Shown: piece by piece, positions 4,837-44,800 of the stretch | How the letters are laid out: each line of letters starts with the position of its first letter | Position numbering within the stretch: the stretch's first letter is position 1 | Assembly: GCA_037379345.1 (NCBI GenBank) | Contig: CM074511.1 | Coordinates: forward strand, 39,562,862-39,626,861 | Length of the DNA stretch: 64,000 nucleotides | Source of the DNA: Perna viridis | Taxonomy: Eukaryota | Reading direction: 5' to 3' | The notes under the pieces: generated by a model | What the model was told of the DNA's origin: nothing | What the model saw: only the letters and a program-made list of their open reading frames with translations | Databases searched by the model: none | Position numbers and translations under genes: made by a program

Positions 4837-6716
4837 TCACAATTGCAGCAATTGTGAGAGTTCTTTTGCCAGAGTTTTATCATCCATTTTTTGTACTAGT
4901 TTCATTATTTCACGTTGTTTGTCACTGTGTAGTACTTTCGTGTTTTGCAAAAATTTTTCCTGAACATCTCTGTCAGAAAGTGGAAAGCGCCAATGTCCAT
5001 ATGGCGTTAAGCATACTTTTTCGAAAACTTTTCCATAACTTGTCAGAATTGACACTTTTACGTACATTTCTGCAAACGATGGATGATTGTCTTCTGGTGT
5101 TTCAACAACAGTTTTGTTTAAAAGCTTGATTAGCGAATTCCTTTCCCTGGTTTGTTTATGAAATGTTTCTGGCGAGATATGACCATCAAGAAGAGCGGAG
5201 CAGACCGTAAATTGAAAAGAATGTCTTCCTTCGTGTTCGCTTTGTGGTATTGGTCTGTTAATGTATTTTGACTGTGGTGCAGTAATTATTACAGCCTTGA
5301 TATCCTGAAGCGCAAATGTACCTAATTCTTTTCTAATATCTTCACGAACCCCGAGAGCAGCATCTATGCCCCAATGCATCCCTAAATGGCAAGGATACCG
5401 CTTGATTGCAATATCTTGTTCATGGAGAAAAACATTTTCTGTTTCTGTCATTAAATCAATTAACTTGTTTGGGTCGTAGTCCTCGTAATAAGCACCAAAA
5501 CCAGACACCATATCTAATATTTGGTTGTTACCTTCTATTCCTTTTTGGGCCAGGAGAGCTGCCTCAAGACCAAATCGAGCAGATTTAGCGGCATGCAATG
5601 GTTTTGTCATGGTTCCAGCATTAGCCATAGGTGCTCCAGCAAACGAGGCAGCTATAGCTAACGCATGTCTACATTTCCACGGATTCAATCCAAGCAATTT
5701 TGAAGAAGCGGCAGCACTCCCCATGACGCCAACAATGGCAGGTGGATGCAATCTGTAACGAAAATATTACTCTACAGATTATCATTGGTATCAATTTAGG
5801 TTGTTTAGAAAAATAATTGTTGCCTTTATTTATTGTTCCAGTAACCACAAAACTACCTTTTTTGTACTTTTATTTTTTTCAAATTAAAACAGTTCATTTA
5901 GTTTTCAAGTACAGTCTTAGATAGTCAAATTATCATGAAAAGAATATCTAGTCATCAAATAATCACTAGAAACTTATCACATTACCAAAATCCAAATGAG
6001 GTGGCTCATAATTGCTTCGTGGGTTCGTGGGGTTTTAATGTGTGGAATCGATTAATTAAGTGACCCCTGTCAAAAAACCAGAACTTTGAAAATTTTATTC
6101 GGTTTAATAAGGTTTAATTTACATTCAATTTGGGAATTTCAAAAATGTCTGGATTTGACAGATTTTCGGATCTTTCGGGTTTCGCTTCAGACAAATTTCA
6201 CTGCATTTGGTGGACGTTTAGTTAGGTTTTTTAAATTCATGTGTAAACAAAATATAAAAAAACAACGAAAGTTTGTACTAAATGAACAATTCACATGCAT
6301 TTGTTTTACAAAAGTATAGAGTTTCATCACAAGATAAATTCTGTATTTTTGTGTTGTATATGGTAAAGAATACATTTGATATGAAAGACAGTGTAATTGG
6401 TTTAGACAAGAATTTAGGTAATTCAAAAGGTCGACAGCTGTGCAAACAATTTCATCTCTAAAATATTTTGGATTACTTACATGATTAGTCACTAACAATT
6501 AATATTTTTAACATAAGTACGTGAGCATTCAATGCAATTTTGACAAGGAAGTATTTGCACTATGTAAACTACTCTTCGTCTCATCGCATAATTCTTGCAC
6601 CTCGAATTGTATTGTTTTCATCGCATGAGTTTTTGTCAAATTTGCAAGATTATCACAGCAAAAGCGTTCAATAGTCTTTTCAATGATAAATGAATATACT
6701 TAATTAAAACGTTGTT

Positions 6717-6808
<92 letters not shown>

Positions 6809-8420
6809 CAGACTTATGTAGTATTATGTGAATAGATAGTTTTAGCCTTATATGACAACAAGTTTTTTTTTTTAATCAAGAATATTTTCTTATTGTTGAT
6901 GAAAATTTACAAAACGGACGTACACATATTTCGGGAACTTTTTTTTCAACAAAGTGAAAATACCAAAAGACTTCTTGAAAAATACACTTAGTCCTATCTC
7001 TTTGTTTACCTGTTAGGTATATGTTTTGCATTATTCGAGCATCTTAGTAGGGCTCCTTGAATTTGGATGCCGATGTTGAAAGCAACCAACAAATCTTCTA
7101 AGCTAGGCTGATACGATGACGGAAGGGCATCTGCTAAAGCTAAAATTGCCGGTAACACAGGTCCACTTGGGTGCGTGGCGGGATGCCATGTGTCGTCAAA
7201 ATCCATTGTATGGGTGCTAGCTCCATTAAGATATGCAGCAGCAGTTGGGGACATTTTAAACTTGCTTGAACCCCATACAATTGATTGACACTTGTCACTG
7301 ATTCCATTAGTTTCAATTGCGAATTGTCTAAGTGTGTTGGCAATATCTGTTTGAGATCCGATAATGCCGACACCGAGACTGTCCAGAACCATTCTTTTGC
7401 TTCTGTAGATAGCTCTATCAGATAAATTATCAATAGAAAAGTCTGAAATTTGGTCAGACATCAGGGTTGTCAAATCGTTTACTGGGTCGGATAAACCTGT
7501 AACACAAAAAGCTATTCGAAGACGCGAAGTAACAAGACGGTAGATGTCAATATTGCAGTACATATATTTTCTTATAGTAGAAAGCATTTTTTATCGTATC
7601 ATCTGGGAAAAAGATATTTAAATTAAAACCCTAAATAATACTTATACAATACTCTTTTATGTCGCTTTCGTTTACAGATTGCAACTTAGATATCGATTTA
7701 TGTAACATCCATAAATAAATCAGAATGACATAGCTTTATTCTCTAGAAGAACATTAGGTAGAGAAAGAAAACTGGAGATCAAATTTAAAAAATGCTATCG
7801 CTAATAGTATAAGTAGATCGTGATATCCATGAAAGTTGTAAGATACTGTACAAACATGTTTGATATAAAGGCATGAACTGATGGACGAATACAATTAAAT
7901 AACAATTAATACAATTAAAGAACATTGGAACTCTTTAATCATGAAAATCTATCAAAACTATAAAGTTATTCCTTACGTTTTGGTAATGCGTGAGCATATC
8001 GTTTAGGATTCGCTGTTGAAGTTGTTGATTGAAAATTTTTCGTTTTGTTTCCATTGCACGGATCCTTCGGTGGTTGTAATATTCGAATTGCCTTCGTAAG
8101 CTGCTTTCTTGGTATATGTATTTGTATGCTCTATAGAACATTTAGTAATTAACAAAGCATTAAGGAATTAATATATTTTCTTTACGATTTAACTTTTTAA
8201 ACAAAATACTCCTGCCTTTATTGTTTTTATGAGATAGAAATTAAGTAATTTATGTCAACTTGAACGAAATCTTGAAAACATGGAATTGATTTAATTAATT
8301 AATTATTTAATAAAGTAATTAGCAACAAGTATCATTATTTAAAAAAAAATCGGATGTGATATTTAAATACCAGAAAATAATTGTTTCCACTATAAAGTTC
8401 CATAAAAATAGTACCTTCAT
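4837..8420 (-). CDS. ACOD1: Cis-aconitate decarboxylase (IRG1/ACOD1, MmgE/PrpD family), ~520 aa
   Basis: Core exons 7496-7010 and 5752-4837 (AG|gtaaac...ttacag|A) encode RSKRMVLDSLG, HTMDFDDTWHPATHPSG, RLHPP, AGAPMANAGTMTKPLH, KRYPCHL, YINRP, SEHEGRHSFQF and YGHWRFPLS, all matching vertebrate ACOD1. Upstream exons inferred from GT/AG and phase: 8420-8415 (MK) and 8130-7977. An alternative start at ATG 7587 gives 497 aa. Identity is confident; the 5' structure is less so. Confidence 0.92.
6719..6805. repeat. (TG)n microsatellite, ~43 units, in an ACOD1 intron
   Basis: Perfect TG run seen directly. Confidence 0.99.
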
Positions 8421-8494
8421 CGCCAATCTGGTAGGTTTAAACAAATCCTTTTCCACCACTCTTTTGTGTTTATTTATTAATGCTAACGTCTCTA

Positions 8495-8553
8495 TATTTA
8501 TAGGACTATCGTAGTGTCTAACCAATGAAATTTGTCACTGGTTTGGATTTTCC
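8495..8553 (-). promoter_or_regulatory. Putative ACOD1 core promoter: TATA box, CCAAT box, NF-kB-like site
   Basis: Minus-strand TATAAATA at 8502-8495, CCAAT at 8522-8526 and GGATTTTCC at 8545-8553. Order and spacing fit a TSS near 8470 and ATG 8420, with no intervening ATG. Confidence 0.5.
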
Positions 8554-8660: not shown

Positions 8661-10912
8661 CTCACTCATACAGTTTTATGATTTACTGAAGATTTTAACC
8701 TATAAAATCTAAGAGCTAAGCTCGCTTTGAAATGCTAAGTTCAAAAACAACGATAAATGTTAACATGGATTAGGAACGTGCCGAAATGTGAGATCTTATG
8801 CTCCAACGGTGCAAAGAGGATAGTGAAGTGAAATACACAATAATCGTATGCTGAGTATAAAACACTTTTGCCTTGCTGCATATTCATTAACCAAGATTTG
8901 TGTTCGATGTTGTACGAAAGAGGCTTGTGCTCCCCCATTAATTTGTATTGATTATTGTATAACCTCAATTGAATGATTTCCGAGGTTTTTCGACATGTTT
9001 GACAAAATGAATGAATGAATGATTGGATTAATTAAGTAATCAATAATCAAATTTAATTTAAAATATTGTCTCCTCCATCAAAATTACGTTTTATAGAACA
9101 ATACCAAAAATCATAACAAACCAGCATATTTACTTTATTTTTTATCAAGATATCACGCCAAACTGAAACAAAATTTGGAGCAAATTAAATAAACAACTTT
9201 TGGATTTGGTAATATAAATATAGTTGACTTAGTGGGAAATAACGTAGATGGTCGAATCTAGGCAGTTATTCAGCGTTAAATGTTATTTTGAACGCTTGAA
9301 ATCTATCTTTTCATACACGACCAATCACACATAATTACAATTTTCAAGAGAACGATCCCATGAACCCGTTCAAAAGAAATCCGGGTAAATGTACAAGGAA
9401 AGTATTTGTTTACATAAAACAAACTTAAGGGAGTAAGATAACACGGAACAGTGCTTGTTATTATTAAATATTGTGTACAATCACCTTTAATTGACTGAAA
9501 ATCATATCTTGTCATGTGATCGTATGTTGTTTTGGTAAGAATGTTTACTTCCGTCATTTCCTATCAACAGTTAATCTCATCATCCATGATCTAATGTAGG
9601 GTAGAAAAATATTTACAAAGTCTCGATCGTAGACTTTTTAAATAGATATGCCGGGTTCACTAATTGTATAACACACTTGTTGATAAATTCTTTTCTACCA
9701 CTGGTTGGTTGTTAAATGAAATTTTAATGATTCATCGTAATTTAAATTCGTGTATTGAAAATAAATATTTTATAAAACCACTCACTCATACAAATTTATG
9801 ATTTACTGAAGTTTTTAACCTATAAAATTTAAGAGCTAAGCTCGCTTTGAAATGCTAAGTTCAAAAACAACGATAAATGCTAACATGGATTAGGGTGGAA
9901 GTAAGAGCTAATATCGTGCCGAAATGCGAGATCTTATGCTCCAACGGTGCAAAGAGGATAGTGAAGTGAAATACACAATAATCGTATGCTGAGTATAAAA
10001 CACTTTTGCCTTGCTGCATATTCATTAACCAAGATTTGTGTTCGATGTTGTACGAAAGAGGCTTGTGCTCCCCAATAATTTGTATTGATGATTGTATTCT
10101 CAATTGAATGCTTTCCGAGGTTTTTCGACATGTTTGACAAAATAAATGAATGATTGGATTAATTAAGTAAATTAATAATCAAATTTAATTTAAAATATTG
10201 TCTCCTCCATCAAAATTAAGTTTTATAGAACAATACCAAAAATCATAACAAACCAGCATATTTACTTTATTTTTTATCAAGATATCACGCCAAACTGAAA
10301 CAAAATTTGGAGCAAATTAAATAAACAACTTTTGGATTTGGTAATATAAATATAGTTGACTTAGTGGGAAATAACGTAGATGGTCGAATCTAGGCAGTTA
10401 TTCAGCGTTAAATGTTATTTTGAACGCTTGAAATCTATCTTTTCATACACGACCAATCACACATAATTACAATTTTCAAGAGAACGATCCCATGAACCCG
10501 TTCAAAAGAAATCCGGGTAAATGTACAAGGAAAGTATTTGTTTATATAAAACAAACTTAAGGGAGTAAGATAACACGGAACAGTGCTTGTTATTATTAAA
10601 TATTGTGTACAATCACCTTTAATTGACTGAAAATCATATCTTGTCATGTGATCTTATGTCGTTTTGGTAAGAATGTTTACTTCCGTCATTTCCTATCAAC
10701 AATTAATCTCATCATCCATGATCTAATGTAGGGTAGAAAAATATTTACAAAGTCTCGATCGTAGACTTTTTAAATAGATATGCCGGGTTCACTAATTGTA
10801 TAACACACTTGTTGATAAATTCTTTTCTACCACTGGTTGGTTGTTAAATGAAATTTTAATGATTCATCGTAATTTAAATTCGTGTATTGAAAATAAATAT
10901 TTTATAAAACCA
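8661..10912. repeat. Recent head-to-tail tandem duplication (8661-9780 and 9781-10912)
   Basis: Both units begin CTCACTCATACA..TTTATGATTTACTGAAG and end TTTATAAAACCA. They are nearly identical, with an ~18-bp indel near 9895-9915. Duplicated spurious ORFs 8741/9861 and 9303/10435 confirm the repeat. Confidence 0.95.
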
Positions 10913-11244
10913 ACTCAAAATAAAAGTAAAAGTTTAAACAACACTGGAAAAAAACAGTCAACGACACTGGTTAGTCCTTCGCGATTATCTCTTGAGATGA
11001 GAGTTGCAACATTTTGTTTCAAATTACCTATTTGTATGACAGTAATGTCAATTTGTAACAAGTTTGTTCAAATACTAAAATCAAGTTCTTATTAACGACT
11101 TGATGTAATTAAATATACAATGAAATTGGGATGTTCATCAAGAATATTACCTCTATCTTTGAAGTCGTTATTAAATCTATTTTGGTTTTGTTTGTAACAT
11201 CATTGTTAAAATTACAGAGAAAAAAAAATGCATGGGATTTTTTA

Positions 11245-11530
11245 TAAATGTCTAAATTGCGTAATCGGAACAACATGTTTCAACAATCCTTCGTACCAGC
11301 AACTCTGAAGTTATGGAACAATTTGTATGCGTCCCATAGAGGGCCCCTTCTTTCGAAGTCTTTAAATTTGATCTTTAAGTTAAATTCAGAACTTGCAAGA
11401 CCTAAACGTTCCAATTCATATCGATATTATTTTATTTTGCAATTTCATTGAAAATTATAAAACTAATTGTGCAAGTTTTAAGTTTGTTTAAAAACTTGTC
11501 AAAGATTCTGGACGCTATGTAATACTGAGG
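11245..11530 (+). mobile_element. CR1/L2-like LINE 3' remnant (copy 1)
   Basis: RNNMFQQSFVPATLKLWNNL resembles the SF.P.T..LWN.L C-terminal motif of CR1/L2 ORF2. Paralogous to 16550-17040. Confidence 0.55.
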
Positions 11531-14523
11531 GAATGAGCATTTTTCATGAAAAGAAAGGCCCGAGGAATGTAAACTGAATCATTATTTAATTTATTTATTT
11601 TGGCTACCCGAGTAATCTATAAAAATCGTTTTTGTTTTAGGTTTTTCCTGTCCTTGTATTTTTTCATGAGAAACAGCGATCAAGTGATATAATTGTTTTC
11701 TTAATCATATATATAGCCAATGACTGGAGCACCGCTATTCTATTATAATTACCTTTGTGAGCACGGTTTGTTGATAAAAAAAATAGTGAGTGGTAATCAC
11801 CCCAAACCTGATCGAGTAGTCATTCAAGAAAAATTGACAACCGAAAAAATCATGTATATTATTGTCATGTGATGTAATGTTTCATGTTCAAGGAAGACTA
11901 TGTTTCATTCTGGATAACTTGTGCCTGGTCGGTCCTAGTGTCGATATTTTGACAATAAATTATATTTAGGCAAAATAGACATATTCATGAACTTTTGTCT
12001 GAAACGTTGTTGGGCTTCCAAGAATATCAGAGTCGACGTCAACTTTATCTTTTGTAGATGGTAAGAGCATTTTAGGCTTTAGGAATTTTTTTTAACTTTA
12101 AATCCATAAAAACGCTTTCCTGTGTGAAAATCTCCCTTGCTCTTCACTGTCTGGCTTGCTATTTTACCCCAAAAATCTTAACCGAAAATGGAGAAAAGTC
12201 TAAATTATGAGTTTTCCCTTAAGTTGGAATACCGTGTTTTGCATCAGTTTGACCACTTTTTTCGACTGCAAACAAGGAAGACAACGCAACAATTTATTTT
12301 TATCGTTTGATTGGGCTTTCTTGTTTCTATTTAAATGGTAGTAAGGGATTTCACCGCTTTTAACTATATGTATATAAGTTTAAATAATAATCTTTCTGTA
12401 GAATAAAAAACCTAAAACGAGCAATGTAGCAATGTCCATTGTTTATGTTCTTTGCTTTAGATGTATTGGAAAGGACATGTTTAAGGTCGCTCTGAATAGC
12501 CCCAACAACTAAAGTAATAACATCCATAGCTACAGAACGATGTAAATCCTTCAAAAACAAACTAAAAAGTAATGTAATAACACAAAGACACATTAATGAC
12601 ACTCATAGCCTGACTACAGGCAGGTGAAAAAAAAAGCGGAAAAAGCGACAGCGGGGTTAACTATTTTCTTTTTCAATGTCTTAACCATTCCGCTTTAACG
12701 CTTATAAGGAATTAACTTAACTACAAACAAATACACACTAGCATTCACCCAATGATACATTCAATTCCATTCACGGAATACTTCCACAACAAACACCATA
12801 TAAACAAATGAGTTATTTATCAAAATAATGGTTTTAGATATTTAAAGATACCTCAAAACACTTTACATAGTGACTAAACCACCAAAACTGCCAGCATCAC
12901 AAATAATTGATCACTACAACCAAAGTGCATTTGATTTGTAGTCGCAATGTCAAGCCAATGTTTAATGTAGTGTAACACCCAATAATGACTTATAGTTTAA
13001 CGTAGAGAAGTGTAATAATGAGTCAATTATCGCTATTAGCGAAAACAAGGTTCAAGTGAAAAAGAATGATCAATTTGAAAAACCGTACCCTTTACGAATA
13101 AATCAATCAAGCAAAATTGATAAATCCATCGGATTTACTTTATATACTATTTCCGCAAGAAACACAAAAAAAATCAATTAATAACCTGCAATTGCTATTA
13201 TTATATTTTTGCATCAACGTGTTTTATCGACGAAAAAATAGCAATGGTTATTTTGTGTTGGTATTTTGTGAAACTGTAGGCAGAGAGGAAAAAGTTCTTT
13301 ATATAAAAAAAAAAATAAAATGGGAATTTTTTAAAAGAAGCCGATATAAATGAAAATTTCATGATGGCATCTAATGGCAGCATCATCCTTAAACCAAGAC
13401 TCATCATCATAAACATGATCATCTCAACTACTACAAATGATAATGAAGAGTAATTCTTAACAAGAAATCGATTTAATTATCAACAAAAACAACATTGTTT
13501 TATAAAGAATATGGCATTCCAATAAGCGAACCTACATTCAAACACAAACTTCGGTCGAATTGGAAAGAAAACACTAATAATTGGGATGTTGACTTAATTG
13601 AAAAAAATAAAAATAAAATATTGTTATGGTGTACAAAACAAGGTAAAGTGAAAACAGTCTTTAGTCGTACATCCAAATTAATTCAGATTTAGAGAAAAAA
13701 ACTGCCCAGACGGAAAAGGAGCGTTATGAAGAAACTAAAAGGGAAACTGGACAATTTTGTTGGTCAGAATCTATTTATTCATTTTCAACCACAACGGGAC
13801 AAATCTATTTCTTTCCATTTATGCTGTACGAAGTATGTGGACTGGGGTCAGAAAAAATATTTATTTTCTAGAGGATGCAGGCAAGAATATTCATTTTCAA
13901 TTTTTGTCAGAACAAGAATATTTATTTCCATAAACTTTAAGCCCCAAGTTATTATCAAATAGTCGTCCCGTACGGTATATGCAGATGATGCAATGATAGG
14001 TTATGACAACAACAAAATAGGTTACTTTCTAATTTAACTATATGCGTTAAAGAATGAACTCGAAATACACCCCCCCCCCAAAAAAAAAAGTTTTCAATGC
14101 ATATTATAAATATGTGATATATTGAGACATTAGGTAAATGAAACTTATATTCACCATGTGGACAAGGAAAGTTTCTTAATTCAGGAATTCGAATTTACAT
14201 TGAACAAGAGCATTAAATTAACACGTTAATAAAAGTCACGGAGACAGCATTGCATAACATGCAAATTCTCTTTGATTACACGAGACGAACAAAAATGCTT
14301 TTTTGTAGAATATAAACAAAAAAGACCTAAAATATCGACTGAATGTGGCATTATTTATGGAGAGGCTAACATAAAATAGGACAAAATCAAGAAATATCGT
14401 CTAAAAGGAACACAAATCAGTCGGCAACTGCATATCGGAGCTTTTAATATTTAGATTTCCAAATTCAAGGGTGTTGAGTCTCCTGCTTTCGGAGGGAGCC
14501 CCCCTATGTTTCCTAAAAAATCT

Positions 14524-14826
14524 ACAATCCCCCGCTTACGAGCCATGTCTCTGACACCGGAAGATATAGCCGCACTCCGAATTTTCTCCCCATTTTGTAA
14601 CCACGTGACTCGTATATTGTCGAATTATAATGGGAGTAACTGAGAAAAACAAGGTATTCATTAACAATTTAATAAAAAATCAACAATCTCCCGCTTACGA
14701 GCCATGTCTTTGACAGGGGAAGATTTAGCCGCACTCCGAATTTTCTCCCCATTTTGTAACCACGTGACTCGTATATTGTCGAATTATAATGGAGTAACTC
14801 AGAAAAACAAGGTATTCATTAACAAT
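14524..14826. repeat. Local direct duplication of ~145 bp (14524-14668 / 14682-14826)
   Basis: ACAATC..CCGCTTACGAGCCATGTC...GGTATTCATTAACAAT occurs twice. Confidence 0.95.
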
Positions 14827-15564
14827 CTGCTGCACATAAGTTATATTTGATGTTTCATCTGCCACATTCAGTGTTAAACCTCACCCCTTTATGAAAATTA
14901 GTACAGTACACCGGATATAGCTTCACAGATGCCCTGTGAATTTTTCACATCCTGTATAGTAGAACCTATAAGCTAACAGAGTGATACATGATTTACAAGA
15001 AATTGGTTATAGGTCTGTGGAGGAGATTGAGTCATTGGATTAAAAACATTGGTGTAACCTAAACCAACAGTTAAAGTTCATCATTTGTTTATAGGAAGAT
15101 GATGAAATCTTGTTTCATATATATATTGTTTAAGGAAAATAAAGCTGATTACTGTCGTAATCATATTGCACATACTTTTAGACAATGGTATCCAGGCTTC
15201 TATCAACGACTGGTTACGATTTAAAAAATGAATTTATATTTGATCGTAACCGGTCATTGATAAAATCATGTGTCTGTATACTAGTAATTGTCTATCGAAT
15301 GTGCATCTTCTGCATTTGCATTAACGTATAGAAAACAAATTGATTCTTCCAGCCTTATTCTTAGCGATGTTGAATGTTGTTTTGTTTATGGTACCACTAT
15401 ATCAAACAACTGAATAATTGTTGCAAGTGAATTAGCTTACTTACATGTTTGTCAAGATACCACACCAAGCAAAAACAAAAATTAAAGTAAAGTAGATAAT
15501 CAACGTTTGGATTTAGTAATAGAAATATCATTGATTTAATGGGAACAACGTAAATGGCCGAACT

Positions 15565-15798
15565 TTGAGCAACTCGGCGGGTGTTTCTAGAAAAGCAGAG
15601 GAGGTTACCGGTGCACCTGGTCCATGTTTCCAGTTTTTAGTGGAGTCCGAGTTGCTCATTTGCTTTTGTTACTTTGTATATATGATTTTAGTTACTCTAT
15701 GTTCTTTGTTGTGTATGTCTGTTTTCCATGTCTGGTCTTCGTCCCTGGATTACATTCTTTTGATTACAGCTATGACCTTGGTTCCCCTGATTACTCTT
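15565..15798 (+). mobile_element. 3' tail fragment of the Penelope-like (Naiad-type) family, inserted into duplicate copy B
   Basis: GCGGGTGTTTCTAGAAAAGCAGAGG...GTGGAGTCCGAGTTGCTCATTT...TTGGTTCCCCTGATTACTCT matches 130-340(-), 20213-20360 and 48604-48790(-). Absent at the paralogous position 10390. Confidence 0.7.
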
Positions 15799-16549
15799 AG
15801 CCAATAATTCAGCGTAAAATGTTATTTCGGTTGCTTGAAATCTATCTTTCCATACACGATCCAGCTAATATTCAATCGAAACAAATCGAAGGTAAATGTA
15901 CAACAAAAGTATTTGTTTATAAAAAAAATAGGGAGGTACATGTAAAGATGACACGGAAATTACTTGTTATTGTTCAATATTGTATACATTACTTTTATAA
16001 CTTTTAAATGACTAATATCATGTCTTGTGACCTTATGTCGTCATGGTAAATATGATTACATACGTCATTTCCTGTCAACAGTTAATTCACAAAAATCTTG
16101 TCATCTATGATCTAGGGTACGCTAGAAAAATAAATTCTTTTATTTAATTGATTCATTGTAACTTAAATTCGTGTATTGAAAATAACTATTTTATAATATC
16201 TACTCAAAACCTCTTGGTAAAAGTGAAGTGGTTTGAACGAAAGTCGAAAAACAGTCAACGGCTGTCATTATCCCTTGAGATGAGAGTTGCAGCATTTTTT
16301 TCAAATTGCCTATTTGCATGACTGTTATGTCAATCTGTATAAGTTTGTTCAAATACTTAAATCAAGTTCTTATTTACGACTTGATGTGATAAAATATAAA
16401 ATGGAATTGGGTTGTTCATCAAGAATAGTTCCTCTATCTTTGAAGTCGTTATTAAATTTAAGTTGGTATTTTCTTTTCGTTATCTTTTGTCAAGACTGTT
16501 TTGGTTTTGTTTGTTTCATCATTGTTAAAATTACAGAAATAATCATTTC

Positions 16550-17040
16550 TTTATAAAATGTCGAAAGGGCAAAGTCCAGATTATCATGTAGATTTATTAC
16601 CACACGTATTTTAGGGACTACTAAAGTAATCGGAACAACTTTACCATTCCTAAGACTAGACTGTCTATTTCTCAACATTTTTGTACCAGCAAATCTGAAG
16701 TTTTTGAACAATTTGGATACGTCACTGAGAGAGCCCCCTTCTTTCGAAGTATTTTGATTTGATTTTTAAGTTAAATATCAACGAGGAAACAATTCCCACT
16801 ACAAAGTGGGGGACCGGTTGCAAAATATAATACACACTAGAATAAGAATTAAGTGTAGTGCCCTTAGAATAACCTCTTCCACAAAACCGACCGCTTTAAT
16901 TCAGAACTTGCAAGACCTGAACATTCCAATTCGTATCGATATTATTCAATTAGGGGATATAAGTAAAAATTATGAAAATAATTGTACAAGTTTTAAGTGT
17001 GTTTAAAAACTTGTCAATGACTCTGAACGCTGTGTAATCT
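16550..17040 (+). mobile_element. CR1/L2-like LINE 3' remnant (copy 2, less deleted)
   Basis: Fragments NRNNFTIPKTRL and GDRLQNIIHTRIRIKCSAL are typical of the CR1/L2 ORF2 C-terminus. Confidence 0.6.
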
Positions 17041-19780
17041 TGGGGAAGTGAGTATTTTTTTCATATAAAGGAACGCCCCAGGAAAGTAAACTGAAGAATT
17101 ATTTTATATTTGTTTAGCTATCCGGGTACTCTATAAAAATCGTTGTTGTTTGGGTTTTCCCCATCCTTGTCTTTTTCATTAGAAAAAGCGATCGAGTCAT
17201 ATAATTGTTTTCTTTATCATATATTTAGCCACTGATTGGAGCACCGCTATTCTGTTATAATTACCTTTGTAATCATCCCAAAGCTGTCCAATATTTTTAA
17301 CCTTAGACAACGATAGAATAACAGTGTTTTGGTAATACCTTCTGAATTACCTGGACAAATGCGTACCCAGAGATTATTACAAGAGGGGCCCCTGACAGGC
17401 TTAAGAAATAGACAGACTCTATCATCGCTCAATGGTTTCCTATATAATCAATTAAATTTTTCAGTCCAAAAGGGGCCCAGGCCCCCTAAGCCCTTTACAT
17501 GTTTCCTCTACTAGCCGATTTTACCATGAATAACAAAATTACATACATGCTATTTATTTAGAAAAACCAAACTGGCACTGGTCTTATTATGGTAACCGTT
17601 TCTATCTAAAACCAAACATCATAGTCCAGCATTATCTAACATCAGAGATATAATCCGGGCGTGGCGAGCGAGTACTCGAATAGTCATTCAAAACAGAACT
17701 GGCGTGTTATGTAAAAAACATGTTTAAGGGAGAATATGTTTTAAGCTGGATAACTTGTGCCTGATCCTAGTGTAGTTGTTTTTACAAAAAAATTACATTT
17801 AAGCCTAATTTGTTGTTGTTGTTTCTTCATTTGTTTTGCAAATCGACTTTTATCGCATACCTTGGATCATGGTCCAAGTAATTGATGAAGTTCGTGTTGG
17901 TTTATTGATGCATGTATTACTGTGGCACTAACTTACATTTGCTCTTATATTGATGGCATGATTTGTATATAAACATGTTTATCAAAGCCATGTCTGAATT
18001 CATGATTTTATGGTAAAACGAAATCTTATAAATATCTCCAATATTTAATGTTGTTTTGTGGACACAATTTTGATGTATGGCCCTATCATTTTTACGGCAT
18101 TCGTGTCACCTCAAATACATTTTCGTGTAACAAGTAAACAAGCATTGCATACAATCTTATATCTCTAGATATCAAATAATTCATATTCATGAAAGCAATT
18201 TTAAGTTTGTGGTCTTAATTTTTCTTCTTTGCAATAACCTATCCTCTATTTAATCATTCTAGACTATAGACTCTATTTTAGATTGGAAAATCCGGAATTG
18301 TTTGGTAATTACATAGCCTTACTGGAAAAAAAATGGTGCCAGAATAAACGTGGTTATAAACTTTTATCTGAAACGTTGTTGGCGTTCCAAGAAGATTACA
18401 ATCTACGCCAACTTTGTTGTTTTTGTTTCGCAAGACAAGGAGGACAACGCACCAACTTATTTTATCGCTTGATCCGGGTTTATCGCTTAACATTTAACAT
18501 ATTCTAATGAATTTTACTTGGGTATTTAACTATTTTAAGTATATGTAGATAAGCTTAACTGTTAATGTTATATTGTGGAAAAAAACCTAAAACGAGCAAT
18601 GTGCATTTTCTAATGTTTTTTTCCTCTAGATACAATGGAATGGAAAAAAATAGTTTCACAGAACTTTGTATTGAACCACCAGTTTTATTATTTTGACGGG
18701 TAGTTGTTAATTGAAAACTCATTTTAAACGACAATGAAGACAACCCAAAAACTTTAGGGATGAACATGAAATAAACATAATTACATATTTCCCTAAAGTA
18801 AAATTAATCCGGAAAATACTTCATAATTGACGTATGAATTTCCGAATGGTGTCCTTAAAATTGACTTCAAAAGTATGTACATTGACAAATTAATGGCAGC
18901 ATAATCAATACTCAAACTGAGGCTCTTATCATCATTGTGATGATGATGATCATCATCATCATGATCTCTACTACAAAGGAAAATTATGAAGAGTTATTCT
19001 TAACAAAAATCAATGCAGTTATCAACAAAAACAACATTGTTTTATAAAATAATTGCTTCATTCATTGGAATAAGCGAACCTAAAATCAGACGCAACATTT
19101 GGTCGAATTGGAAAGAAAAACCCTAATGCTCACCTAATTGATAAAAGGGAAAAAAATAAAATATTGACGTACACTGAAAACAGTCTTTAGTGTGTACACC
19201 AGATTTAAAGAAAAAATGCCAAGAGGGAAAAGGGGCAATGGGAAGAAACTGATGGGCGACCATTTGATTCTGACGGGGCCTGGCAAATTTTGTGGAGTTA
19301 GAATATTTATTTATTTTAAACTACAACGGGACAAAATTATTTATTTCATTTAACGGAAGAGATGTGTGGACTGAGGTCAGAAAATTTATTTATTTTCTAG
19401 GAGGTGTGGGTCAGAATATTCATTATCAACTATTTCTGGACCACAAAGTATCAAATGGTCGACCTCGTACGTTACATGCAGATGATGAAACGATAGGAGT
19501 AAGACAAAAAAATTGTTACTTTTTACTTTAACTATATGCGAAAAAGAATGAATTTCGAAATACACCAAAAAGATAGAGTCAATAAATATAATAAATATGT
19601 GATATATCAAGACAATTGATAAATGACACTTATATTGGAGAAGAACATTTTCTTAATTCAAGATTTCGAAATTACAGTGAACAATATTAAATGTAACACA
19701 TTCATATAAGTTACGTAGACAGCATTGCTTATATCATAATCAATTACTAGTTAGAAAAGCATAACATGCAAATCTCAATG

Positions 19781-19957
19781 NNNNNNNNNNNNNNNNNNNN
19801 NNNNNNNNNNNNNNNNNNNNNNNNNNNNNNNNNNNNNNNNNNNNNNNNNNNNNNNNNNNNNNNNNNNNNNNNNNNNNNNNNNNNNNNNNNNNNNNNNNNN
19901 NNNNNNNNNNNNNNNNNNNNNNNNNNNNNNNNNNNNNNNNNNNNNNNNNNNNNNNNN
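19781..19957. other. Assembly gap (177 N)
   Basis: Run of N. Confidence 1.
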
Positions 19958-20212
19958 TAAGACCTAAAGAATTGACTGAATGTGGCATTATCTACGGAAT
20001 CGCTAACATAAAACATGACAAAGTCAAGAAACATCTTCAACGAGGAACACACTTTTGTTACCATGTGACACGTGTATAGACGTATATAAGAGTAACTCCT
20101 GCACAGATGTTATATTCGCTGTTTCAAAGCTTTATACCTCTGCCACATTCAGTGTTAAACCCCAACCCTTTATGAAAATAAGCACTGTACACCGAATATA
20201 GCTTCACAGACG

Positions 20213-20360
20213 CCCGAGTTGCTCATTTACTTTTGTTACTTTGTATGTATTATTTCAATTACTTTCTTTGTTGTGTTTGTCTGTTTTCCATGTCTGGACT
20301 TTGTCCATGGATTACATCCTTTTGATTTCCGCTAGAATCCTGGTTCCCTTGATTATTCTG
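20213..20360 (+). mobile_element. Short 3' tail fragment of the Penelope-like (Naiad-type) family
   Basis: CCGAGTTGCTCATTTACTTTTGTTAC...TGGTTCCCTTGATTATTCT matches 15647-15798. Confidence 0.7.
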
Positions 20361-23300
20361 TACATGTATTAACGTATAGCGGATAGGAAACAAATTGATT
20401 CTTCCGTCCTTATTCTTAAATATCGTTTTGTTTTATTATACCACCATATCAAACAATTGAATTATTCAAAACAAATGTCACGTGTTTCCTCTTGTCTGCC
20501 ATACCATGTCAAATGTTTGGCTTTATAAAAGCCTTATACATAACTGATTCTTCTCTTTAAATATTAAGTACTTCTCACTAAATCACATGTAAAACTTACA
20601 TATGTTGTGCACAAGTTGTAATTTTGTAATTACGACCATAAAACAAATAAATCATTCAATGCTAGAATACTTTATTAGCTCCAAACTGTAATCGTGTATT
20701 TCCGTATTCATATGTTGAAATGTTTTAATGCTATCACTTATATATTATAAAGATTCGTTATTATATGTTAGGATTGTTTAACCAACACAAGCAGACATGA
20801 CACAAAGTTTGAAGCTATCTGACGAAGTGTATTGCAGACTAAACGAGATAATTAATGTCCATCTAAGTATCATGCAGATGGTAATTTCTAGTATACATTG
20901 TTTAGAATACTTCAGGTATACAAATTGTTTCATAAAACTCTGTCTTGTATCTCTTCTATTAATTACTATTAAAGGGAAAACTCTGAATTCGCCAATTATC
21001 ACGGTCCATTAGAGCTGTTGCTCAAATACCTTTTTACTGGAAGGCTTCACATGAAAAGTTATTGGTCCATTCAATAAGTGAGATTCCTATAAGTACCTTA
21101 CTTGGAAAATAAGAAAATGTGACCTTTTTCGAATAAATCGCTCATATTCCAATCTCGCATGATTCTAAAGTGAACAGCGACTTAAGTACTTCTCTGTCTA
21201 AGAATCATACAAAATGTGTATCAGGAGTGGTACATGAAAACAAACTGCAGAGATTATATTGCATTATGCAAGTGTTTATACCTCATAACCTCCAGAAAGA
21301 ACAATCAATTTGTCTCTTTAAAATATTTTTACGTGTAAAATTAATCGTAAGTTATGACCTCATAGTAAATCAAAGTATTGTGACGTCATAACTTACGACA
21401 AATTTTTACACTTACGATTTTTTGTGACAAGGACCACTGGAACTCTCACATTTTAAGAGTATTTCACGTCGAGGATTGTCTAATGATATAATTAAAACGA
21501 TTATATATCCACTTATCTCGATTTTAAACGAGACCATTAGAAAACAGGTAGCTTCTTTTAGAAATAATAATAAAAATATAAATATTGCGTTATTGGCCAA
21601 GAAAATACCAGTAGATACCAGGAGGTGGACAAATATTCCATAAAATGAACAAATTAGTAATCTCTGTCATATGAATTATAGAGGGGATGAGTATCATTAT
21701 TTTTGTATGACAATGATTAAATAAAATCGCTTAGAGAAATTCAAATATTTAGACCACAGTCATGGTAGAAAAAGTGATAAACACATGACCAACAATTCGT
21801 GCAACATATGGGCTGTCTATTAAAATACATGAAGAAACTGCTCCTATTAGAATCGAAATAAATCACGTCATTTTATCAAATGGAGTTACCGTGATTTATT
21901 TCTCAAATACATATCTAATCTTTATATGGAACTCCAAATTTTATAAAATGTTTGTGTAACATTACAGTATTAACACATTCACACGTGTTTCTTAAACAAA
22001 TTGAAGATAGTTTTCATGGAATGTGTATATTGTTATCATTTGTTTGATCATGTTGTTTTTGTTGCTTTGCTTTGTTTATTTATATTAAGTCTGAGAACCT
22101 CTTGCAACACGTAAAGTGCCGAAGTTGCAATAAACTTGCAATTAAGAAAAAAATATCATTAGTGTATTCTAACATACTGCAGCAGATTCTGGTACTTAAA
22201 GAATTCTTTTTAAAACACGTCTATCATATTACGTAATATTCAAGATTAAATTTATTTTTAGAATGGTGAAACTACATTGTTTTACAACTTTCAGGAAGTT
22301 AGGTGTTGTTATTACTGTTAAACTGTTCACTTTACATAGTTAACTACTATTGGTAGATATTTATATAGGTCGAACTAAGACAGATTTTCAACGACTTTTT
22401 AAAAAGACAAATGAAATGTCCCGGTAACTGCGTCACTCCGTTATCCTTGTCAGTGGTAAATTTTAAAAAGTGGTCGTTACAAGGTCATTTTCGAATAAAA
22501 TTTGTAGAAATGATTTTGATGGTTGGAAGAAGTTCAATTAAACAAATCTTGCTCAAACAATATTTTGATCGGAAGTTAAGTACGTTCATCAAACAACCAG
22601 ATTTACCGCTTTTGGGTGTTTCGACCGCACGGCGACTGTTGTTTCAGTACATTAAAGGGGGATGCTTTAAGCCTTATCAAAACTAGTTTAACCCCACCCA
22701 CCGCAAATTCATATCCACAGTCAGAAAATGTTAGTCATGAATGTGTCTTTGTGTCATTATTATATATTACTGTTGAGTTTGTTTTTGAAGAATTGTCATC
22801 TAGGATTTTATTACTTTGTTGTGTGGGCCTTCCAGAACTTAAAGGTGTGTTCACACTTATTGAAAATAATTTTGTGATCTCTGAAAGTATTTACTATTTT
22901 GTATTATAGATTATACACTGGGCCCAGTGGTGCATTTGCAGTGGTAGATCCATGGGAGTGTGCAAGGGTTGGCATACCCCCCTTTTTATTTGAAAATTTG
23001 TCATTTTCATGTGTAAAATTGACAAAATATGGCAGATACTGTCCTAGCATCCCCCTGGTCTGAGAAACCCTGGCTTGCACCCTAGCTCCGTTTTAAAGTT
23101 ATTTGGTACGTTTTTTTCTACTGATTCGTCATAGCTTCCTTATTTTCACAGATGGTGTACTTTAAGATGTAGGAACTACTTACCCTTCCGAAGCAACTAT
23201 TGACTTTTCTTTCTTTCCTACACGCTTTCCTACTTTTTAAATTCTTTGCAATAGCAGACAAAAGGCATTTTTACTGACAGAAACATTATGGAGTCCAAAG

Positions 23301-25279
23301 TAAGGGTACTTTCTAATATTAAATTGAAAAGACCGATGATACGCCCCTTCAAAATCAATAGACTGTTTTGTCTTTTGTTTTTCGTCAACTCTGTTACTAT
23401 ATAGGGTTAATATACGTAGTATATCATCTTTAAATGGTTTCAACCATGTAATACGTACTTTAAGAGGGCATTCGACTAGTCAAACATTTATAACAACTTG
23501 AATACCCGATCTTCTAAAAATAAAGTAATAAAACTTCTAATCTTTGGTCTTTTTTTAATTATGACTGCTTATCAGCATCAAAGAAAAACTTACTTTTGAT
23601 TAAAAGGCGTGGTTGTACACCAATGAAGACGTTGTCTTTTTATCTACTCCGACGACAAGACGGTTTTGCCTGAGGGTTTGTTTTGCGTCCAAAATTAAAC
23701 AAAAACATTTCAAAAATTTGTTCTACATAAACGGATTCCTCATTTAATTTCAGTTTTTCCATGTATTTTTGTTTTTGTTTTTATTTCGTTTCCAGTATTT
23801 TTATAGTTATGTTATAGATCTGCCTTGCTTTGTTCACATGGGCTTGCTCCCACTATCAAATATGCAGCCCCAGTAACCACGAAAAGGCTGACACTACCGG
23901 TTTCACTAATTAGCGACAAGAACTGTTAAGAAGCGTCTAGAAGTGACATTAACCATAAAGGGGTCTAGAAAAAAATATATATATATACATTCAACTTCGT
24001 CCTCTTACAGGTTACACCTGTTTCATATTATTTTACGAAATTTTAATCTGAGTAATATATGTAGAGTTCGTTATAATTACCTGGAAATATTATTTTCAAA
24101 GAATATATTGAACTACAACATCCTAATTGGAGCACAAGCTTAAACACGATTTCAAATGAAATGGTTAACAAGGATGTCTCAATAAATAAAAACGTATATC
24201 AAGTGTCAGTTTCTGTAAGAAACAGGTAGTGGATGAAACATGGTATAAAAACCACCATTTTGAAAGTTTAATTTGACTTATTGCACCATAGGAATTAAAG
24301 AGAGAAGACAAGATTTTCTATGTCACTCTGGTAAACTGAGTTATAATTTCGTTGAAACGCACTAAAAATGTACATTTCAAGGGTAGATAACTCTGTAAAA
24401 ACTTCATTTTTCTTATATTCTGTTGGAAAATTTCTGAACAAATCCAGTGATGCAGAGATCAAATAATGGTCATTTCAAATAGAGAACGCATTCTTTAGTT
24501 AAATTATATGGTCAGGTCGGTGGGTTTTTGACATGCATATGTACATGTTTTGACATGTATATTGGGGCAACTATTTTGCTGTACCTGTATAGTGTTGTTT
24601 TAGGCCAGCTGCAGCCATCCCAGTGGTATGATGGTTTCTTCGTCGTTCATTGAAGGACACATTTGTTGCCTTGAGCTGACCTTCTTCCTCCAGGTGGGGT
24701 TGACTCTTTGACATATTCACCATATTTATTCTCCTCATGTGTCTCTGATTTTTCCGATTTTGCCTGATTCTTACAAAACCTTGCACTTAAAAGACAATAT
24801 AAAAAAAATACATAACGTATAGTGATTTATGTATTATATATTAATGTACACCTGATAAATGTTATTGTGAAACTTTGTTCCAAGCCTTTTGGGGCGGGTA
24901 TCCTGCAGCAGGGCAGGTGTCAAATCGCTATCTAAAATAATCTACGGATTTTAAACACTTCTATACATACCTATAATAATAAGGTAATACACGGATTCAC
25001 TTTGCTTGTATTTTTAAGAGGTAATAACTTATATAAAAGTTGAATCTAATACAGATGTTTAGACTCTGAGCTAAACTACCAACATGACCATACATGCCCA
25101 GTAGTTATACTTTAATATCATGGATTCTTTCTGTAGTTTGTTGGTTGTTTTTCTCTGTCTTAATCCTTTGATTTATTTATATTGTATATGCATGCTTTTT
25201 CCTTCAGGAGTTCTTGGCCTTGAATAATATTTGGTTCATTAATCAGTTTAACTGAATCGAAAGCACGTCAAGGCTTTCG

Positions 25280-27859: not shown

Positions 27860-28555
27860 ATGTCCGACGGCACAGTCTCTAAAACATTCACTGATGATGG
27901 ATTAGCGACAGAAACTCACGGAGCACCAAATCTACCAAAAGATACAGACCCCGGAAAGTCGAAAAAGAAAATTAGCGGTTGTCCTGTTTATTTTGGAGTA
28001 AAATCTTATCTACATGAATTTTACGATCCAAATTCTTCGGCGAAGGATCCGAATATTTATGAGGATGACGACGTTGCGTTATTGCTGAATCCGAGAGCAA
28101 GAAGACGGAGATGTCCACCCATTTGGTTGAAAGTGTGTATCTGGAGTGGAGCAAACCTGTTGTTGTTTGGTATAGTTGGAATTTTAGTTGGTTATACGGT
28201 TCCTAGAAAATCTCCGGTGACGAAAGTCAGTGAAGACACTAATCTTGGCTATATTGATCACAATGCTGTGTCGTTTAACTCGACTCTGGATTTGTGTAAA
28301 TTAGTTGGTTTGATTTTATTTTGTTCTGGTGGAATCATATTTGCTATGTCACTTCTGTTTCCGAGCTTTTTAACTAGCTACTGTGACGAGGATCCTACGG
28401 AAGATTCAATTCGTATACCCATCGCAGATGAAAAAACGCCGCTTAGCCCTATCGAGATGTCAATCCCCGCTACATCAAAGGTCAAAAACGTTCAGCCGAA
28501 CAGAGTTGCTTTCAAAGATGAAACACCGACAAAAGATGTTCGGTTTCAGGATTGA
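27860..28555 (+). CDS. Neurensin-family two-TM protein (NRSN1/2-like), 231 aa, single coding exon
   Basis: YFGVKSYLHEFYD, WLKVCIWSGANLLLFGIVGILVGYTVPRK and IDHNAVSFNSTLDLCKLVGLILFCSGG parallel neurensin motifs (YGVRSYLHQFYE...FNSALD..KLAG). Probable 5'UTR intron 27417-27802 (AAG|gtatgt...ttacag). AATAAA at 28597-28602. Confidence 0.9.
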   Translation: MSDGTVSKTFTDDGLATETHGAPNLPKDTDPGKSKKKISGCPVYFGVKSYLHEFYDPNSSAKDPNIYEDDDVALLLNPRARRRRCPPIWLKVCIWSGANLLLFGIVGILVGYTVPRKSPVTKVSEDTNLGYIDHNAVSFNSTLDLCKLVGLILFCSGGIIFAMSLLFPSFLTSYCDEDPTEDSIRIPIADEKTPLSPIEMSIPATSKVKNVQPNRVAFKDETPTKDVRFQD

Positions 28556-41874: not shown

Positions 41875-44800
41875 ATGTTGTCCGTTCAGTCACCAAGAAA
41901 ATTACAGGAGAAGATGAAACAAGTGAAGATAAACGACGAAAACGAGGTAAGCTTCAGCAGACGTTTTTGATAATTCTCAACATTTTCTGCCCAAGAAAAG
42001 CGGTTGATGAAAAACGCAATGCAATTATTTACTTTATATTTTTAAACTGAAAGATTATGCACACGATTTTGCGTTGTGCAGTGTACATTAGGGTGAAATG
42101 GTATTAACAGGCGGGATTTCGTGCTTACGAAATCCCGCCTGTTTTTCGTAGATGTCCAGGGTATTAATTTTCGGAATAGGTATAGGTGTTGTATTGTAGC
42201 ATAGTAGAATTTAAATGGTAATAGATCAAAAATTAGTATTAAAACGATTTAAAGATAGTGTTTCATATTAACTGCACCAGTGCAAGGTCTTTTGCCATGG
42301 TGTGATGATAATCGGTCTACCTCACCATTACACTCGAAATTGAGTGAGCTTATATATTATAATTGGTTTCATACTTACATTCTAAACATTTCAGGTACCA
42401 GCAAACAGCCATTCAAATAGAAAACCAAAAGTATTGGGAGACAGCCAAAAGCAGGTACAAGTAACAATTGCTTTGTTTGAACTGCTACTCCTTCGTGTTA
42501 TTTGGTGCATACATGACTATATAAATTTGCTCCATATTAATTGTGTTATACAAACTCTTATATTTGTTGTATCAGAAAAGATACTTTGAACTGTCTATAC
42601 TTTTGCTTTTTTTTTGATTTTGGGAAAGTTTTGTACTTGAAGTAAATTTGAATTGTATGTACAGTATATACTGTAGTTAAAATGAAGAAGCTAAGGTAAT
42701 CAGGACATGAAGCACACTTTAATTTAATTGTTGCTGCCTGTGTTTTAATGCATTACAAAGAACTTAACTCCATTATCATCACATTGTTATAAAATTTTCC
42801 GTTTTTATTCCAGAACATTCTTAACAGTCAACAAAATGAGGTGAGCATCTTTTTTTTTAGAATTACTTTCTAATAACAGTCAACTAAAACTGATTCTTTT
42901 CTAATTTTAACAAACTAAGTCAAATTGCTAAAATTACTTTCGTTGAGAAACAATGTGATCACAAGGAAATTGTATGCATTATTTATGGTCAGTTACTAAT
43001 GACCTCATTTTTCTACAGATTGTCAAACCAATGAAGCCTAATATTCTGAAGAAACGTGAGGAAGAAGAGCCATTGTTGAAGGATAACCCAAGACGATTTG
43101 TTGTCTTCCCCATTGAGTATCATGATATTTGGCAAATGTACAAGAAGGCAGAGGCTTCTTTCTGGACTGCTGAAGAGGTTGATCTGTCGAAAGATTTAGT
43201 GCATTGGGAAGCCCTTAAAGATGAAGAGAGACATTTCATTTCACATGTGCTAGCATTCTTTGCAGCCAGTGATGGCATTGTAAATGAAAATCTGGTATGT
43301 TGATTTAAAATGTTCACATTTGGAATGGTATTACACACCTGTTCAGTGATTATTACTGGTAAATTACAGTGTACTGTAATTTTGTTTCACATTGCTATGT
43401 TATACATTTGTAGATTCACAAAGTGATTCTGAAGTAAATAATATGATAATTGGATTACTCGGATAAATTATTATATTCAAATAAAACTGGAATGATCAAA
43501 TTCAACTCTTTTTCAGGTTGAAAGATTCAGTAAGGAAGTTCAAGCTACAGAAGCCAGGTGTTTCTATGGTTTCCAAATTGCAATGGAGAACATTCATTCT
43601 GAAATGTACAGTTTACTCATCGACACATACATTAAAGATCCAAAGGAAAGGTAAGAAAAGACAACTGAACTTCTAATGAAATTTTTAGTGTTTACAAGTT
43701 TTTGCAAGCTATTATGGTGATGATTTCATACATAATTTGTTAATAATTGTATCAGCCTATTTAATTTTTAAAACCATAAATTTGAATAACTTGACTTGAG
43801 AATCGTAGTAAATGCATCACGATTCTCTTGAATAAAAGGTACATGCAGTGAAGTGGTCTTTGCACCATAACCTACATTTTTGTAACGTTCTGTTTTATTC
43901 TCCATATCTGCAGATTAAACAATGCCCATTTTTGTAAAGCATTCATTCAACAAGTTGTGACCACTGTCCAAAAATTAATTGCTAAAACTTGTTGTTTGCA
44001 GAGATTACCTGTTTAATGCCATTGAAACTATGCCATGTGTAAAGAAGAAGGCTGACTGGGCAATCAAATGGATCAATGAACAGAGTGCATCATATGCTGA
44101 AAGGGTGGTTGCTTTTGCTGCCGTGGAAGGCATCTTTTTCTCAGGTAGCTTTGCTGCCATCTTTTGGTTAAAGAAAAGAGGAATTATGCCAGGACTGACA
44201 TTCAGCAATGAACTTATCAGCAGAGATGAGGTATGTGGCTGTTAGAACCAGACCTTATATCTAAATTTAATTTTCTTCTGCTTAAGACTGTATTATACTG
44301 TTACTTTACCTTTTAAAACCCTGCTACACGTGGAAAGGTATTATGTGATAGCCTCTGAAAAGTTGCATGTCAGTCCGTTCTAAGTGGATTCCAGCTGATT
44401 ACAAGATATTGAAGGATCTGTTCAAATTTCATGTAAATCAAGTTAAATTCCAGTACGATTGGACTATTTACACTAAAGTTTCGGTTATTTTAAGGTGTTT
44501 TTACCCCACCCACTCCAAAAAAAACCAATTGTAACATTGCAGAGTGTTATTTAAATTATATTTAATCTCTCTATTTGAAATGATTAATTTACTTCTAAAT
44601 TTGTGCTTCATTATCTTCTCTTAAAATGAGGACTGGTTGTGAAAAAGAAAATGCTTGTTGAATTATTTTGTCTCGCATAAATACCTGTGTATCACCTTCT
44701 TTGTGTAATGCTGTAAGATAATGACTCTTCCATATTTCAAATACTTATTTTAATATTCAGGGTCTTCACTGTGATTTTGCTTGTCTGATGTACAACCACT

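Follow-up and report, generated by a model that had tools for sequence, protein, structure and literature searches.

Is the putative itaconate-forming enzyme of a bivalve imported into mitochondria by means of an N-terminal extension, and does its gene provide a second N-terminus with another destination? A first-pass annotation of the window (the whole stretch of 64,000 nucleotides from Perna viridis analysed here) had raised both possibilities for an ACOD1/IRG1 gene, proposing hidden upstream exons and an alternative start at ATG 7587. We hold it quite probable that this is a single-copy, four-exon paleo-IRG1 gene with one main mRNA, that exons 1 and 2 encode a likely cleavable matrix presequence, and that ATG 7587 is likely unused. 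The features of the gene are as follows (positions are those of the window).

8502..8495, reverse strand: TATA box TATAAATA, read from the sequence; the exon 1 contigs end some 25-30 nt below it
8475..8415, reverse strand: exon 1, with the first two codons behind a 5' UTR of about 55 nt; the upper end is approximate
8414..8131, reverse strand: intron 1, 284 nt, GT-AG, phase 0
8130..7977, reverse strand: exon 2, 154 nt with ag/gt borders, leader residues 3-53
7976..7497, reverse strand: intron 2, 480 nt, GT-AG, phase 1, separating the leader from the catalytic core
7496..7010, reverse strand: exon 3, 487 nt, opening the MmgE/PrpD N-terminal domain and carrying D152, T156 and H162
7009..5753, reverse strand: intron 3, 1257 nt, GT-AG, phase 2
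5752..4837, reverse strand: exon 4, coding part to the TGA, completing the N-terminal domain and adding the C-terminal domain; carries H218, K266, K333, H338 and Y379

The coding parts of the four exons (8420-8415, 8130-7977, 7496-7010 and 5752-4837, reverse strand), joined by coordinates, encode 520 amino acids without a stop. ATG 8420 has a purine at -3 and is the first ATG of the spliced RNA; translation would start here. A further methionine codon, Met66, is in frame at 7461 in exon 3. The first-pass annotation had placed exons 8420-8415 and 8130-7977 and the acceptor at 7496 correctly, with in-frame splicing (phase 0, then phase 1), and its translation of the leader, including the single acidic residue ahead of the junction, was right as well. 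The exons are real, but they are not newly discovered: the extension is already present in a preprint (bioRxiv 10.1101/2022.06.17.496652) and in the NCBI models of Mytilus, scallop, oyster, abalone and limpet.

The product belongs to the MmgE/PrpD proteins. Both the N-terminal (PF03972) and the C-terminal (PF19305) domain score above the curated Pfam cut-offs. In the PDB, exon 3 matches mouse and human cis-aconitate decarboxylase (CAD) with an E-value of about 1e-42 and exon 4 with one of 1e-85, and the fold of human and mouse ACOD1/IRG1 (PDB 6R6U, 6R6T and 7BR9) is common to both of these coding exons. IDS epimerase matches far more weakly (1e-18 versus 1e-85 for CAD). The best named matches are mollusc CAD-like proteins; the best named one among 861 is Mytilus californianus XP_052074468.1, with 70% identity over exon 4, and other, unnamed proteins reach 78%. 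By E-values and best matches, metazoan IRG1 appears to be a closer relative of the gene than PrpD or IDS epimerase is. The eight active-site residues listed for human CAD (PMC6789909), D93, T97, H103, H159, K207, K272, H277 and Y318, were mapped via lungfish IRG1 (P0048), and all eight are kept, as D152, T156, H162, H218, K266, K333, H338 and Y379. The product of this bivalve immune gene likely makes the antimicrobial metabolite itaconate.

To place the splice joints on transcripts, contigs from 8 of 23 listed runs (7 studies) were examined, all eight from outside the large runs that are likely DNA; none of the 23 is on record as RNA, and 20 of them contain at least half of the query words. 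The contigs cover the exons, pass over the GT-AG introns and have almost nothing in the flanks, which is the pattern of a transcript assembly, and our guess is that the eight runs are RNA. The joint 7977>7496 was found in transcript-type contigs of all eight runs (7 studies), and in five of these runs its shorter side has at least 63 letters. Five of the eight runs (4 studies) have such contigs with the joint 8415>8130; in two of them the shorter side exceeds 31 letters. As to the remaining three, run X6 continues into intron 1, run X12 stops at 8132 and run X7 stops at 8037 in a chimera. A single contig of 1697 bases from run X14 spans exons 1, 2 and 3 and enters exon 4. The intron 3 joint was present in each of the first four runs (4/4), and exon 4 letters were present as loose ends in each of the other four (4/4). 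The upper contig ends are at 8471 (run X14) and 8475 (runs X1 and X3), such ends being no proof of a transcription start. A genome search gave one match to exon 3, and a processed gene copy behind the splice joints is therefore unlikely. No second copy of the 7497-8130 stretch was found in the genome either.

In the deepest runs, all three introns also occur in unspliced form, with a smaller contig depth. By a coarse measure, the depths for intron 2 were 53 versus 405 in run X1, 77 versus 738 in run X3 and 11 versus 274 in run X5. This fits pre-mRNA.

A few minor features of the contigs were noted. The X7 joint at 8037 was considered as an alternative exon and rejected: there is no AG at this position, and the 25 loose letters map 7.9 Mb away. 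The two sides share a stretch of 5 nt, as expected of a template switch. The contig of run X14 has an A>G change at 8081, which would turn Ile19 of the leader into Thr. A homopolymer at 8340 in intron 1 is one base longer in runs X1, X3 and X6. At 8475, the sense-strand 5' end, the contigs of runs X1 and X3 (one study) carry 14-16 non-genomic A residues, likely a library artefact.

The encoded extension has the composition of a presequence. Met1 of human ACOD1 aligns with residue 57, giving an extension of 56 residues; human ACOD1 does start at the catalytic fold, as the first-pass annotation had it, and human and mouse ACOD1 differ in this from the leader-bearing gene described here. The first 30 residues contain 2 Arg, 4 Lys and a single acid (Asp), with a net charge of +5, and none of the 430 internal 30-mers of the same protein matches this charge with one acid. 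The leader has 6 Pro in 54 residues. Its best 11-mer, residues 11-21, has a hydrophobic moment of 0.73 (p=0.069 versus shuffles), and the orthologues range from 0.42 to 0.77. Presequences are described as 20-60 residues long, with R-2, R-3 and R-10 rules for cleavage by MPP, Icp55 and Oct1 (PMC7723863). The leader is N-terminal, basic and acid-poor, and measures 47 residues to the likely cut. This cut would lie in the motif KRYAH at residues 45-49, where Arg46-Tyr47-Ala48 agrees with an R-2, R-3 or R-10 site.

To see this extension in relation to others, 34 of 120 listed homologues were aligned, with isoforms taken from 10 clusters. Five mollusc-type entries whose first residue falls within the core (P0003, P0017, P0018 Pinctada, P0021 Solemya and P0027 Batillaria) are likely 5'-truncated models and do not enter the leader counts. 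In 18 long-form mollusc orthologues the extension exceeds human Met1 by 33-67 residues, with a net charge of +2 to +7 in the first 30. Near its end we recognized a pattern of the form Arg-x-[YFLI]-small/His or Arg-[YF]-[SA]. It occurs in 16 of 23 mollusc sequences, this gene included, versus 2.6 expected from shuffles, a count that is descriptive, the pattern having been written post hoc from the alignment of related and hence not independent species. In 13 molluscs the motif is 39-43 residues ahead of the RSKR anchor. Vertebrate IRG1L-type proteins have it as Arg-x-Leu/Ile-His, 42 residues ahead of the anchor in three of four. The motif is missing in 7 of the 23 (both cephalopods, Physella, three oysters and one Mytilus). 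The cephalopod extensions (P0040, P0035 and P0143) have a basic start, but next to the core they show no processing-like Arg motif. In abalone, RRYAH takes the place of the KRYAH of this gene. The Mytilus proteins (XP_052074468.1, CAC5420205.1 and CAG2238972.1) are 503-514 aa long, with a basic leader and QSTT and RYSA-type motifs. The leader described here is about 10-17 residues longer than theirs, and its motif-to-RSKR distance of 39, versus 32 in Mytilus, is closer to those of scallop, abalone and limpet.

The division between leader and core has a likely counterpart outside the molluscs. Two vertebrate IRG1L loci (L002 and L003) have a phase-1 acceptor within two codons of the intron 2 position, and in one of the two a matching phase-1 donor was read from the sequence; as here, the phase-1 intron is just ahead of the core. 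Since this place is shared, leader and core likely lie on separate exons from molluscs to vertebrates. Vertebrate IRG1L differs in its shorter leader of about 30 residues and in a core divided by more introns. Both loci come from metagenome contigs; they are vertebrate IRG1L genes with introns, hence host DNA.

These properties suggest that the exon 1-2 leader likely sends the enzyme into mitochondria. The basic amphipathic stretch at residues 11-21 would be recognized by TOM/TIM23. MPP would cut at KRY|A, either by the R-2 rule or with Lys at -3 followed by trimming by Icp55, to leave a mature start near Ala48. In the matrix, beside the TCA cycle, the enzyme would decarboxylate cis-aconitate to itaconate after immune induction.

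The extension could instead be translated and serve no matrix import, as a mitochondrial tether or a drifting tail under low constraint. We regard this as unlikely. It would accommodate a leader that is richer in Lys than in Arg and rich in Pro in its middle, with an amphipathicity that does not stand out from shuffles at p=0.069. It would also accommodate the fact that the orthologous extensions are not alignable pairwise and that likeness to most of them is not significant (best p=0.026 among 26 comparisons). However, mitochondrial presequences commonly diverge in sequence. The distance kept between the Arg motif and the core, in 13 molluscs and three vertebrate IRG1L proteins, argues against such a tether or tail. 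So does published work on the family, in which zebrafish IRG1L was located in the matrix, although only about a third of pIRG1 and IRG1L proteins pass TargetP (bioRxiv 10.1101/2022.06.17.496652).

This preprint, as far as its available text goes, names the mollusc and amphioxus homologues paleo-IRG1 (pIRG1) and describes an N-terminal extension as frequent in pIRG1 and IRG1L. The pIRG1 proteins are, like the gene described here, mollusc ACOD1 orthologues with an extension predicted to be a mitochondrial targeting sequence. TargetP finds such a sequence in 34.56% of pIRG1 and IRG1L and in less than 1.59% of IRG1; it is reported to have been lost in vertebrate IRG1. Zebrafish IRG1L makes itaconate in addition to being located in the matrix, and induction by poly(I:C) is reported in oyster hemocytes. 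By this account the leader-bearing form is ancestral and is found in mollusc paleo-IRG1 as well as in vertebrate IRG1L, whereas vertebrate IRG1/ACOD1 is leaderless, and the preprint draws the same contrast to human IRG1 as the first-pass annotation. Oyster has two pIRG1 copies and this genome one. In the accessible part of the preprint, the location assay is on zebrafish IRG1L and on no mollusc protein, the words 'exon' and 'isoform' occur 0 times, and no exon structure is given. The presequence reading of the first-pass annotation is well supported by composition, by the Arg motif of the orthologues and by this family work, but with the preprint and the NCBI models ahead of it, it is not new.

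With the present analysis, a further mollusc paleo-IRG1 has an RNA-backed gene model. The analysis also pins a likely cleavage site common to bivalves, gastropods and vertebrate IRG1L, which makes matrix import of a mollusc protein easy to test. With the central claim already in the preprint and in NCBI models, only a genuine leaderless isoform would be new.

The second N-terminus proposed in the first-pass annotation lies at the 3' end of intron 2:

7604..7497, reverse strand: acceptor-like AG at 7604-7603 and in-frame ATG at 7587

The letters are as had been described. From ATG 7587, 30 open codons lead in frame into exon 3, with a net charge of +4 and 4 Arg. A differently targeted isoform could start here, produced via the acceptor at 7603 or from a promoter in intron 2, and we consider this highly improbable. 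When the intron was shuffled 5000 times, an ATG-led frame of at least 30 codons arose in 1.96% of the shuffles; in the window itself, 22 of 822 acceptor-like site/phase pairs have one. With a net charge of at least +4 added, the rate is 0.5-1%. For a single site such a frame is uncommon (2-3%), which counts for the annotation, but over all the introns of a genome such frames are common. Besides 7603 and the true acceptor, intron 2 contains five further acceptor-like YAG sites of similar pyrimidine content. The 193-aa open reading frame is known in the protein collection only as a product of a gene caller.

The RNA contigs do not show use of this site. None of the eight runs (7 studies) contains a joint into 7602, as far as contigs show; rare variants are lost from contigs, and a minor isoform could escape notice. 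The deepest runs do have contigs with letters of intron 2, as the isoform would have it, but in X1, X3 and X5 a single unbroken contig crosses 7602 with identical letters, TAA included, and all three introns are unspliced in the manner of pre-mRNA. RNA that retains the intron would have 13-18 ATGs above 7587. The reading frame argues in the same direction. Exon 2 spliced to 7602 has 72 codons before it reaches a stop. With exon 1 joined to 7602 the frame would be the same but for one TAA, which lies 3 bases ahead of the ATG and ends translation at 5 codons.

The encoded peptide has no processing motif, a hydrophobic moment that is not distinguished from shuffles (p=0.40) and no likeness to orthologous leaders. 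An apparent likeness to the Mytilus leader was rejected when it failed against shuffles (p 0.77-0.97). Among 18 core-exon open reading frames from other species, none (0/18) extends more than 11 residues above the intron position, versus 29 here, an indirect comparison that reflects the choices of the gene caller. Conservation was judged on these open reading frames because a metagenome scan gave only the two vertebrate IRG1L loci. We found no literature on alternative isoforms of bivalve ACOD1, in a search whose coverage mostly leaves out subscription journals. The proposal of two differently targeted isoforms via ATG 7587 finds no support in the RNA contigs, the reading frame or the relatives, and the second N-terminus is likely a chance open frame in an intron.

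A leaderless form could also start from Met66 (7461), by leaky scanning or from an unseen first exon, and leave part of the enzyme outside the matrix, as in vertebrate ACOD1. The nearest relatives, P0205 and P0165, have an in-frame Met where the core exon begins. In Gigantopelta aegis (P0029, XP_041359144.1) and Octopus bimaculoides (P0141, XP_052831990.1) the NCBI isoforms X2 are without the extension of the corresponding isoforms X1, and make a dual location in other molluscs possible, though these X2 isoforms are predictions. In the spliced mRNA described here, three ATGs precede Met66, the first in a good context, and a start at Met66 would lose nine residues that are alignable with the N-terminal end of human ACOD1. 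The eight runs show no other first exon, the odd joint of run X7 resembling a template switch. A start at Met66 is very unlikely in our view. A broader version of this idea is that molluscs already switch the compartment of itaconate synthesis. The presequence would form an exon module of its own, set off by the intron that vertebrate IRG1L shares, and a condition-specific, leader-skipping transcript (from ATG 7587 or Met66, or as in the X2 isoforms) would make an enzyme outside the matrix, in anticipation of vertebrate ACOD1. We take this to be a long shot, at which only the predicted X2 isoforms hint. One main mRNA with a cleavable leader remains our preferred reading.

The region upstream of the gene contains several features of its own. 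Two consensus matches, TTCCGCGAA and GGAAAATCC, are located at 8569-8545 (reverse strand), 50-70 bases above the TATA box. We take the former to be a STAT-like palindrome and the latter to be NF-kB-like. Just upstream of the IRG1 promoter there is a head-to-tail duplication of 1.12 kb (8661-9784 and 9781-10917, 96% identical), for which a genome search found no dispersed copies. Each copy contains GAAGTGAAA (at 8825 and 9963), which resembles an IRF site. An older local duplication of the upstream region (9130-13500 and 15437-19042) is 77-93% identical in patches; no IRG1 coding remnant was found in it or in 11000-25000, only upstream DNA. Four other open reading frame pieces of the neighbourhood were scanned and gave two blanks, an open reading frame of the neurensin/TMEM74 family at 27860-28552 (forward strand) and an exon of the ribonucleotide reductase small chain at 42959-43300 (forward strand); the neighbours of oyster pIRG1 are VOC, YrdC, 2Fe-oxy, GAT and POZ.
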